Positions 17,363 to 63,541 of a stretch of 64,000 nucleotides of DNA are shown in pieces; position 1 is the first letter of the stretch, and every line of letters starts with the position of its first letter. A program made the position numbers and the translations under genes. This stretch comes from Escherichia phage UFV-AREG1, in the sequence record KX009778. One strand, written 5' to 3'. The notes under the pieces were generated by a model. The model had not been told where the DNA came from. It ran no database searches and saw only the letters and a list, made by a program, of their open reading frames with translations.

Positions 17363-17527
17363 TTACTCTTCTTTTTCTTTAGATTCCTCTTTTTTCTTTT
17401 TAGGAATCTGTTCAGGACCTTTATTTACTACAGCGCCCGACGTTGTTCCAGTAGAGATATTTTCAGGATTACCACCTGAATCTCCAGCTACCATATCTTC
17501 TTTAATAAATTCTTTATATGTTTTCAT
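17363..17527 (-). CDS. small acidic/lysine-rich protein with CTS-like N-terminus
   Basis: 54-aa ORF not in track; my translation MKTYKEFIKEDMVAGDSGGNPENISTGTTSGAVVNKGPEQIPKKKKEESKEKEE. Confidence 0.4.
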   Translation of the reverse strand: MKTYKEFIKEDMVAGDSGGNPENISTGTTSGAVVNKGPEQIPKKKKEESKEKEE

Positions 17528-60992: not shown

Positions 60993-61373
60993 TCAATTAG
61001 AAAATAAATTTATCCAAGATTGTTCTTTAATTAAAAATGGCTCAGAATCATATGCCATTAAACTCTGCGTGATTAGTCCTTTAAAAGGTCCATCAATAAA
61101 TTCCATGGTAAAATATGGAATTTTATTCATTAGCCGTGCATTAGGAGCAGTACATAAAACTCTGCATCCTTTGAATACACCCTTTTGTAATTTGTATTGC
61201 TTGGGATAAAATTCGCTCAAAATGTTATTATTTGCTAAAATTTCAAAATGATTCACCAATTTATTTTTAATAGTTTTTGGCGAAAAATAAAGATATTCGA
61301 AAAGCTGTGTGTCTGTCATCATTGCATTCCGATTACGAAAAACTGTGGACGAGTAATACCACCAATACAACAT
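60993..61373 (-). CDS. hypothetical protein
   Basis: 126-aa ORF. Confidence 0.45.
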
Positions 61374-61858
61374 TTAATATTACAGCAGCAGTGTACAGTG
61401 TCAATATGGACACTATAAATCTTATCCATATCAGGAGATTTGACAGGCTCGTCAATTATATACAAAATTCGCGAAAGCGATAAACCTCTGAACTTGCTTC
61501 CTTTATTACCTATAAAACTACGCACAGAATCAGTAAATAAACGAAAACGTATATCATCATTAGAATAACGCGAAAATTCCTTTTTAATGTTATTTGCAGA
61601 AATTTTAGCGTAAGCTGAAGTATTAGAAAGAACAATAACTGTTCCACCGTCATACAACCAATTAGCGGCAAAATTAGTTACTGCAGTTGATTTACCAGAT
61701 TGACGTCCACCATCTAGTCGAAGTGTGCAATACTGCTTAAGTAAGTCTTCAAATGGCGGGATATATTCGTTTTTACAAATTTCTTCTACTCTAGCGTCAG
61801 AATGGTGTGTAAAAGCATTCATCAGGGATAGATAAGGACCAGTTAAAAATGTTCTCAT
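61319..61858 (-). CDS. P-loop-containing protein
   Basis: 179 aa with Walker A-like GGRQSGKST. Confidence 0.5.
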   Translation of the reverse strand: MRTFLTGPYLSLMNAFTHHSDARVEEICKNEYIPPFEDLLKQYCTLRLDGGRQSGKSTAVTNFAANWLYDGGTVIVLSNTSAYAKISANNIKKEFSRYSNDDIRFRLFTDSVRSFIGNKGSKFRGLSLSRILYIIDEPVKSPDMDKIYSVHIDTVHCCCNIKCCIGGITRPQFFVIGMQ

Positions 61859-62010
61859 TTCTTCTCTCTAAATTTGGGCCATTCCATGGCGCATGAATTG
61901 TCCATTTCTGTATTTACCCATTACCGCACTTGGGCTCGACCTTATTACAGGTTGGCGGGAATCCCTCACAGAATCATGAGGTCCAGCTTGTTCCCATATT
62001 TCTTATTTGC

Positions 62011-62484
62011 TTATTTGAATGATTTAACGTACTGAATAGAACCTTTACTATTCACAAAGGCAATTTTACCATTTTTGTTATACATGGTAGCAGTACGCTG
62101 ATAGCCATAAGTTTGTTTACCAGATTGATAACCAACTAATGCGAAATTATCTTCACCCATTTTATTCTGTTTAGCGCGAATACGTTCATGGCCATGTGCC
62201 ATAAGAACCTTAGCATCACCAGTTGCAATGGATCGACGAGTTTTTTCATCTTCAACTGTATTAACAAAATCGTCAAATGAATCAAATTTAGCATGAGATT
62301 TATTATACAGTTTTCCATCTACTGCATAATTATATCCTTGTACATCCATCTCAACTTCTGTACCATCATCCAATACAGCAGTGATTTTCTGACCTTTTTT
62401 AAATTTCAAAAGATCAGTAAAAGATTCAGCAATAATTTGAGAATTAATAGCTGCTTCAGTGATAAATTCTTGATATGTTTTCAT
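62011..62484 (-). CDS. internal protein (head-packaged) with capsid targeting sequence
   Basis: 157 aa; N-terminus MKTYQEFITEAAINSQIIAE resembles the CTS of T4 IPI/IPII/IPIII; lies in the IP locus upstream of e. Confidence 0.7.
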   Translation of the reverse strand: MKTYQEFITEAAINSQIIAESFTDLLKFKKGQKITAVLDDGTEVEMDVQGYNYAVDGKLYNKSHAKFDSFDDFVNTVEDEKTRRSIATGDAKVLMAHGHERIRAKQNKMGEDNFALVGYQSGKQTYGYQRTATMYNKNGKIAFVNSKGSIQYVKSFK

Positions 62485-62538
62485 ATGTTTCCTTTAAATA
62501 TTTTAATTAGTAATTTGTCTCTTCAAGCAACTGTGAAT

Positions 62539-62568
62539 ATACTATCACAATTCTAGGAGAAAGTAAAC
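62539..62568 (-). promoter_or_regulatory. early promoter for internal protein gene
   Basis: minus strand GTTTAC-18-TAGTAT. Confidence 0.5.
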
Positions 62569-62572
62569 AACT

Positions 62573-63541
<969 letters not shown>

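Follow-up and report, generated by a model that had tools for sequence, protein, structure and literature searches.

A conserved, putatively structured RNA element beside ip4, a candidate injected defence inhibitor gene, in T4-like phages

We have examined the internal-protein (IP) locus in a 64,000-nucleotide stretch of Escherichia phage UFV-AREG1 (record KX009778; the whole stretch is called the window below), and show that the IP gene next to the lysozyme gene e is, with near certainty, Ip4. Judged by sequence comparison, this is an already named and widespread gene, with no novelty at the protein level. The 152-bp gap downstream of it is no remnant of denV but a separate functional unit, most likely a structured RNA. 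We tentatively propose that the gap encodes an undescribed class of structured RNA found across unrelated enterobacterial phages, and that Ip4 alongside it may act as an injected defence inhibitor. The features of the locus are as follows.

62573..63067, minus strand: e lysozyme gene, upstream neighbour of ip4
62539..62568, minus strand: putative T4 early-promoter-like sequence GTTTAC-N14-GTGA-TAGTAT, read by eye and conserved in the T4 e-ipIII spacer
62462..62499, minus strand: block common to IP genes (ATTTAAAGGAAACAT plus ATGAAAACATATCAAGAATTTAT), comprising the ribosome-binding region and capsid-targeting codons; upstream edge of the cassette
62011..62484, minus strand: ip4 (ipIV) coding sequence, an ATG-initiated ORF of 157 amino acids plus a TAA stop
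61859-62010: 152-bp stretch without a substantial ORF, between ip4 and vs.8
61319..61858, minus strand: vs.8 homologue of 179 amino acids, true start the conserved MRTFLTGPY, downstream of ip4 and 95% identical to T4 vs.8

The ORF listing gives the N-terminus of the ip4 product as MKTYQEFITEAAINSQIIAES, with MKTYQEFITE as its first ten residues, and the protein is 100% identical over 157 of 157 residues to Ip4 of RB32 (YP_803065.1) and IpIV of T2 (BBC14742.1). Pfam DUF7412 (PF24183) matches it over its full length (319.4 bits against a cut-off of 27, E = 6e-96; residues 1-157 on profile positions 1-158), PHROG 3155, 'internal virion protein', matches at E = 6e-102, and the BFVD model 'Ip4 [Enterobacteria phage K3]' (UniProt Q38388) is 98% identical. 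Counterparts in RB14, AR1 and wV7 also carry the Ip4 or IpIV name, and in all these phages, as in T2, RB32 and K3, the gene is in the same position, flanked alike by e and vs.8. There being no protein-level difference from the T2 and RB32 proteins, the window represents another member of that phage group.

Megablast matched the locus to 831 phage records, all from T4-like phages of enterobacteria, that label the corresponding gene 'Ip4', 'IpIV' or 'internal virion protein'; the closest DNA match over the 1.8-kb locus was T4_ev240 (98.2%, with an extra insertion). The mature Ip4 domain was found by tblastn in 469 of 50,697 phage records, at 99% identity or more in 290 (Tequatrovirus) and at 60-80% identity in 159 (T4-like phages of Klebsiella, Salmonella and Serratia). 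Profile searches recovered 16 clusters among 5.8 billion proteins, all from T4-like phages, and four representatives at E < 1e-10 among 1.8 billion proteins, and neither search returned a relative outside the T4-like phages. A preliminary description of this DNA had put the product forward as a candidate new protein; the identity to the RB32 and T2 proteins, the Pfam and PHROG assignments and the 469 records show that it is not new.

Other statements in that description are borne out. It had recognised a canonical capsid-targeting sequence (CTS), and MKTYQEFITE is indeed present, within a segment (M1-A11) that is common to T4 IPII and IPIII; about the first 11 residues are the sole part of Ip4 with a likeness to T4 IPI, IPII or IPIII. 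It had also not recognised the mature portion as T4 IPI, IPII or IPIII, and residues 21-157 are unrelated to these proteins by BLASTP (E = 9.9 for IPI, 0.61 for IPII and 4.5 for IPIII); the mature region is identical to that of the named protein Ip4, and not to that of T4 IPII or IPIII. T4 IPI* and Ip4 are alike in having an N-terminal CTS, predicted processing by gp21 and a small, compact mature protein, and both are encoded in the hypervariable IP locus, but IPI* has 76 residues and mature Ip4 has 137, and the mature parts are without sequence similarity. T4 IpII and IPIII share with Ip4 the e-adjacent locus, the block of ribosome-binding site (RBS) and CTS codons, and basic mature proteins, whereas their mature domains are unrelated to that of Ip4.

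The order of genes in T4 is vs.8-denV-ipII-ipIII-e, and that in the window is vs.8-[gap]-Ip4-e, with ip4 directly downstream of e. This agrees with the variant IP locus adjoining e that had been reported for this DNA, and with the annotated order in RB32 and T2 (vs.8-Ip4-e-nudE), which likewise lack denV. The absence of denV also holds: tblastn with T4 DenV as the query found no counterpart anywhere in the 64-kb window (best E = 3.2). Ip4 thus stands in for the ipIII-ipII-denV block of T4 in Tequatroviruses of the T2/RB32/RB14 type. T2 is more UV-sensitive than T4, which is classically attributed to an absent v (denV) function, so a denV-less locus of the T2 type is unsurprising. Separately, in the T2 record LC348380 'nudE' is annotated as overlapping e, and vs.8 is annotated at just 110 amino acids (L003 1520-1852); T2 vs.8 has two bases fewer than the window and RB32 (…AAACGA--ATATCCC…), which suggests that it is frameshifted.

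Cassette-like variability is a long-described trait of IP loci, and the e-proximal locus is modular, with ipIII plus Ip4 in SA21RB and another IP plus Ip4 in SH7. The RBS and CTS block is invariant between e and Ip4 in the window, between e and ipIII and between ipIII and ipII in T4, and between ipIII and Ip4 in SA21RB; ATTTAAAGGAAACATATGAAAACATATCAAGAATTTAT is unchanged before each IP gene examined, and DNA similarity ends past about codon 9. The window e-Ip4 spacer matches the T4 e-ipIII spacer, and an early promoter is annotated in SA21RB at the site homologous to the promoter-like sequence at 62539..62568, where a sigma-70 scan made no call. The other IP locus, downstream of the dNMP kinase and Acb1/57B genes, contains a distant Ip4 homologue (34% identity; called at 186 amino acids) on a metagenomic T4-like contig (L006 6001-6561), so the Ip4 module has moved between these two loci. 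In the e-proximal locus, the edges of the Ip4 cassette are the RBS and CTS block upstream and a conserved structured element, described below, downstream. Elsewhere in the window, just upstream of the primase gene, a 54-residue ORF (17363-17527, minus strand) begins MKTYKEFIKE, a capsid-targeting-like start with an I-K-E motif, and continues into a low-complexity tail rich in Gly, Lys and Glu; its product may be another small packaged protein.

About 120-130 bp of the 152-bp gap align at near identity in the window, RB32, T2 and T4. In T4 the conserved block starts right after the denV stop codon (…GCATAA followed by GGGAACAACCTGG…). The annotated start of vs.8 differs among these phages: the T4 protein is annotated at 219 amino acids, its first 40 codons being the conserved block, RB32 vs.8 begins at another ATG (189 amino acids), and the window protein has 179 amino acids. 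Additionally, an in-frame TAG (61868-61870) separates the conserved block from the vs.8 ATG at 61858 in the window. The disagreement among the three annotated starts speaks against a coding block, and the vs.8 N-terminal extensions that overlap the element in T4 (NC_000866 64854-64912; L002 2355-2413) and RB32 (L001 3090-3167) are probably non-coding annotation artefacts. The vs.8 protein itself has weak P-loop similarity (AAA_14 and Terminase_6N, E about 0.003-0.03; PtuA, 0.008) and matches PHROG 2, terminase large subunit, at 3e-06; it is the gene after the element in most T4-like loci examined.

Within the gap we delineate the following parts of the element.

61916..61996, minus strand: conserved structured element, core module of 81 nt, from a covariance model and compensatory changes
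61991-61996 with 61956-61961, minus strand: P1 helix, enclosing a hairpin at 61964-61981
61953-61956 with 61916-61920, minus strand: P2 helix, with a bulged G at 61919
61949-61952 with 61939-61942, minus strand: P3 helix, ACCU/AGGU
61921-61938, minus strand: invariant strand CGAGCCCAAGUGCGGUAA
61876..61915, minus strand: 3' extension (…AUGGACAAUUCAUGCGCCAUGGAAUGGCCC) confined to T4-like phages and conserved in T4-like types A and B

The whole element (61876-61996, minus strand) is G+C-rich (51%), and 17 nt separate the end of its 3' extension from the vs.8 start codon; by eye, GCCC at 61876-61879 could pair with the 3' strand of P2 as an alternative. The centre of the module is a 32-nt near-invariant core, ACCU-GURRNA-AGGU-CNAGCCNNNGNGCGGUAA, the second part of which reads C-N-A-G-C-C-N-N-N-G-N-G-C-G-G-U-A-A. 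Across a 32-row alignment 23 of the 32 core positions are invariant and six more are at least 90% conserved, and among 48 distinct full-length copies variation is limited to about nine positions. These copies came from pattern scans of IMG/VR and metagenomes together with annotated records (66 real matches).

The helix that closes the core, P2, varies on both sides with zero unpaired cells, as the pair counts by alignment column show.

Columns 21-54: AU 18, UG 5, UA 4, CG 3, GC 2
Columns 20-56: CG 21, GC 5, UA 4, AU 1, GU 1
Columns 19-57: CG 28, GC 4

The alignment behind these counts is gapless and anchored on the core alone, so that the evidence for P2 is unbiased. Next after the closing pair of P2 stands an invariant bulged G. 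Pairing was found in 96.9% of cells, against 75.5% in shuffles and 29-52% when the partners were slid by 1-3 columns, and a model-based alignment gave 94.0% against 73.3% (67 matches at E <= 0.01, being 66 real matches and one partial chance match in L033; 43 distinct rows). P1, in the hairpin domain that precedes the core, occurs in many versions, including UGGGAA/UUCCCG, GGGAG/CUCCC, AAAGG/CCUUU, AAAGC/GCUUU, UGAGUG/CACUCA, UGAAUG/CAUUCA, UGAGGG/CCCUCG, GGAAC/GUUCC and others; the pairing percentage of P1 is biased upward, because this helix was placed in each sequence through a complementarity search. The covariance model matches the window once (61911-61965, 64.9 bits, E = 3e-15) and T4 once, within the 'vs.8' extension. 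The single-sequence fold of the element is no better than that of shuffled sequence (z = 0.05), and the case for a structured RNA is therefore a comparative one.

By blastn the 152-bp gap matches 1,115 phage records, among them Tequatroviruses and more distant T4-like phages at 76-82% identity. A 43-nt core recurs at 86-95% identity in rV5-like phages and a 45-kb phage, mostly in unannotated spacers, a related copy is carried by phages of about 146-151 kb (SF1-1, DE16, phiWec188/190), and further copies are found in Klebsiella phage Pylas (70 kb) and phages of about 45-46 kb. In T4-like phages the element comes directly after the last cassette gene, be it Ip4, denV or another IP, and in most of the loci read lies 15-20 nt, and up to about 45 nt, before vs.8; in L017 an IP-like gene, and not vs.8, follows it. 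In non-T4 phages the element is often within or beside tRNA arrays, and in the rV5-like and approximately 46-kb phages same-strand tRNA arrays are 200-700 nt away.

Two variants of this arrangement were also seen. The Pylas/KpCHEMY26 group (L026 10480-10720, L024 5250-5420) has an outer helix, GUUGUGAC/GUCACAAC, around the element. On either side of the element are repeated spacers (UUUCCGUUGUGACGAAA…) and units resembling tRNAs to the eye (GAGCAUU…GGUUCGAUUCCGCC…AGUGCUC), which ARAGORN did not call. In some T4-like phages a degenerate second copy stands in tandem about 40 nt past the first (L029 9105-9181, L051 447-523, L061 5091-5166), with an altered core (…AAGGUC-AGCCCGCGGCGGUAA…).

Against Rfam 15 the element drew no match, with thresholds of E <= 10 for the window and E <= 1 for seven further loci that carry it. 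None of 5,426 E. coli genomes matched it, and the exact core occurred in none of 185,579 bacterial species genomes, so a host origin was rejected; exact-word matches in soil metagenomes were set aside as chance, the rest of the core being missing. The element is not a tRNA (no ARAGORN call), not an intrinsic terminator (no U-tract) and not a copy of T4 rnaC or rnaD, neither of which gave a covariance-model match. By eye, pairing of the invariant strand with the P1 or P3 loops was nowhere consistent across types, and visual comparison gave no consistent likeness to an HDV-like topology, ToxI, boxB, a CRISPR repeat or RNase P RNA. A literature search for the element's sequence string returned nothing relevant; the roughly 8,500 candidate phage RNAs catalogued in PMC10690425 were outside its scope.

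Two other accounts of the gap have to be weighed against a structured RNA. One makes it the residue of a deleted denV, beside an unrecognised internal protein, after the preliminary description, which had called it all that remains where T4 has denV. The premises were sound in that denV is truly absent and the mature protein is truly unlike T4 IPI, IPII and IPIII, but the protein is the named Ip4/IpIV of RB32, T2, RB14, AR1, wV7 and K3, the gap aligns with T4 sequence past the denV TAA and not with denV, and the element also stands 3' of denV in T4, L011 and L020 and 3' of IP genes elsewhere. This reading is thereby refuted, and we give it next to no credence. Alternatively, the element could be protein-coding, as an N-terminal extension of vs.8, or a mere recombination arm of DNA, as its annotation as vs.8 codons 1-40 in T4, its position as the downstream homology arm of the IP cassette and its unremarkable single-sequence fold would allow. 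Against this stand the in-frame TAG and the discordant vs.8 starts of T4, RB32 and the window, the Pylas group, in which the element of L026 (L024 is alike) has no ORF and lies between the tRNA(-like) units, and P2 pairs 21-54 and 20-56, which change on both sides with no unpaired cells. Moreover, the orientation of the element is always that of the flanking genes or tRNAs. We therefore consider a coding sequence or recombination arm improbable, and retain a structured RNA as the most likely nature of the gap.

Among known phage elements, T4 rnaC and rnaD are similarly non-coding, conserved and phage-specific, and they lie in the T4 tRNA cluster much as the element of non-T4 phages lies in or near same-strand tRNA arrays. 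PeSLs are conserved intergenic promoter/stem-loop cassettes that have been proposed to mediate module shuffling in T4-type genomes, and the element of T4-like phages is likewise placed at a module boundary. In contrast to AT-rich promoter cassettes, the element is G+C-rich, combines covarying helices with a near-invariant core, and is shared by unrelated families of phages. We read it as a small stable RNA, or a 3' or 5' UTR module, that would recognise a conserved host component: conservation across phage families together with the lack of a host copy would point to an RNA binding one such component.

For the protein, the anatomy of Ip4 is consistent with a packaged precursor, and its predicted parts are as follows.

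62425..62484, minus strand: propeptide, residues 1-20, with the capsid-targeting sequence MKTYQEFITE and two predicted gp21 sites
codon 62455-62457, minus strand: predicted prohead-protease (gp21) site I-T-E10, cleaved before A, from sequence motif
codon 62425-62427, minus strand: predicted gp21 site I-A-E20, cleaved before S, from sequence motif
62014..62424, minus strand: mature Ip4 domain, residues 21-157, with a predicted compact alpha/beta fold

The gp21 prohead protease cleaves by the rule (L/I)-x-E, from which we infer that Ip4 would be a substrate. E10 and E20 are invariant in a 13-member alignment of the family (A3) and nearly invariant in a 15-member alignment (A4), and the family keeps a hydrophobic residue at -3 of both, in the motif (I/L/M)-x-E. 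The mature protein would have 137 residues, 15.5 kDa and a pI of 9.3, and is lysine-rich (22 K+R against 17 D+E). An AlphaFold model of the mature domain, made with two extra distant homologues, is confident (pLDDT 93.9, pTM 0.88), whereas a model that included the propeptide reached a pLDDT of 50. The predicted fold has a sheet rich in beta-hairpins, three short helices and a second sheet. Its best Foldseek match in the PDB had E = 0.31, a structural search of BFVD returned Ip4 itself only, with IPI absent from the matches, and comparison of the sequence with PDB sequences, NCBIfam and PADLOC gave only noise. A test for homology to a characterised inhibitor, by sequence or by fold, thus came out negative, and with no similarity to such inhibitors or to solved structures the mechanism of Ip4 is argued by analogy.

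On the known T4 pathway, the CTS would carry the Ip4 precursor into the scaffolding core of the prohead, where gp21 would cut at I-T-E10, I-A-E20 or both and so remove 10 or 20 residues. The basic 137-residue protein would then remain amid the packaged DNA and be ejected with it into the cell. By analogy with the T4 IPs, cytoplasmic Ip4 may there neutralise a first-response host defence. We consider packaging and injection very likely given the CTS, which alone is enough to target even foreign proteins into the T4 head (PMC3012670). That packaged IPs can be injected anti-restriction effectors, as the first reading of this locus had noted, is an established view: the diverse internal proteins are regarded as injected defence inhibitors, and IPI* blocks the GmrS/GmrD type IV restriction enzyme (PMC3012670); on ECOR17 the phage needs IPIII, and a plasmid-borne IPIII that lacks the CTS is functional in the host (PMC9391042); and IpII inhibits the fused GmrSD/BrxU of ECOR21 (bioRxiv 10.1101/2023.04.06.535777). 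For Ip4 itself, a literature search found no experiments, whether on virion presence or on function, and an anti-defence function is, by this analogy, an evenly balanced proposition. Taken as a whole, a packaged, injected, anti-defence Ip4 with the adjacent gap as a separate unit is the explanation that we regard as reasonably probable.

One class of target is disfavoured. T2 is blocked by ECOR21 GmrSD/BrxU unless IpII is supplied (10.1101/2023.04.06.535777), and sequenced T2 genomes encode exactly the Ip4 of the window. T2 thus has Ip4, lacks IpII and is sensitive to the GmrSD that IpII inhibits, so that at least this type IV enzyme would not be a target of Ip4. On this indirect evidence, the case for type IV restriction as its specific target is weaker.

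It is also conceivable, although rather unlikely, that the role of Ip4 in the head is chiefly structural or physical, and that it balances DNA charge, aids packaging or ejection, or protects the leading DNA end non-specifically, with no dedicated host target. Its pI and surplus of basic residues fit DNA-associated packing as well as they fit an inhibitor, and in a T4 head the internal proteins, about 1000 molecules in all, touch the phosphates of the DNA with their lysines (PMC3012670). The high constancy of Ip4 within Tequatrovirus (290 records at 99% identity or more) likewise suits a structural part and is unexpected in an arms race, though all Tequatroviruses are close relatives. However, the modelled protein is compact, well ordered and globular (pLDDT 94) and not a disordered polycation, no T4 IP is needed in laboratory hosts and all three are now tied to host-specific counter-defence, and close relatives swap whole cassettes at the locus, as is typical of accessory genes. 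Ip4 might instead be an injected enzyme that acts as the packaged ADP-ribosyltransferase Alt does, modifying some component of the host or the phage upon entry. Polar residues invariant in A3 (D47, H64, H99, R101, E111, D112, N113, Y128 and Q129) and an orphan fold that could hold an unrecognised active site would accommodate this. Yet no catalytic family matched in Pfam, NCBIfam, PADLOC or the PDB, the protein is small and without a nucleotide-binding motif, and, once three distant homologues are added (A4), Y128 alone of the listed residues is still invariant; R130 alone is on the 90% 'nearly invariant' list, and R101 is not. We regard an enzyme as a poor prospect, and an injected defence inhibitor remains our preferred reading of Ip4.

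Since IPI, IpII and IPIII are each tied to counter-defence, Ip4, the one common internal protein that is left among those of the classical T-even phages (T2), is an obvious candidate for host-range screens. The correction to the gap matters more than the protein, as it implies that the N-terminus annotated for T4 vs.8 is probably non-coding. The element, covarying, RNA-like and missing from Rfam, defines the downstream edge of an exchangeable IP/denV cassette, and no other non-coding feature of the locus is as conserved. If it does bind a conserved host component, its partner could be, for example, a tRNA-processing, translation or defence factor.
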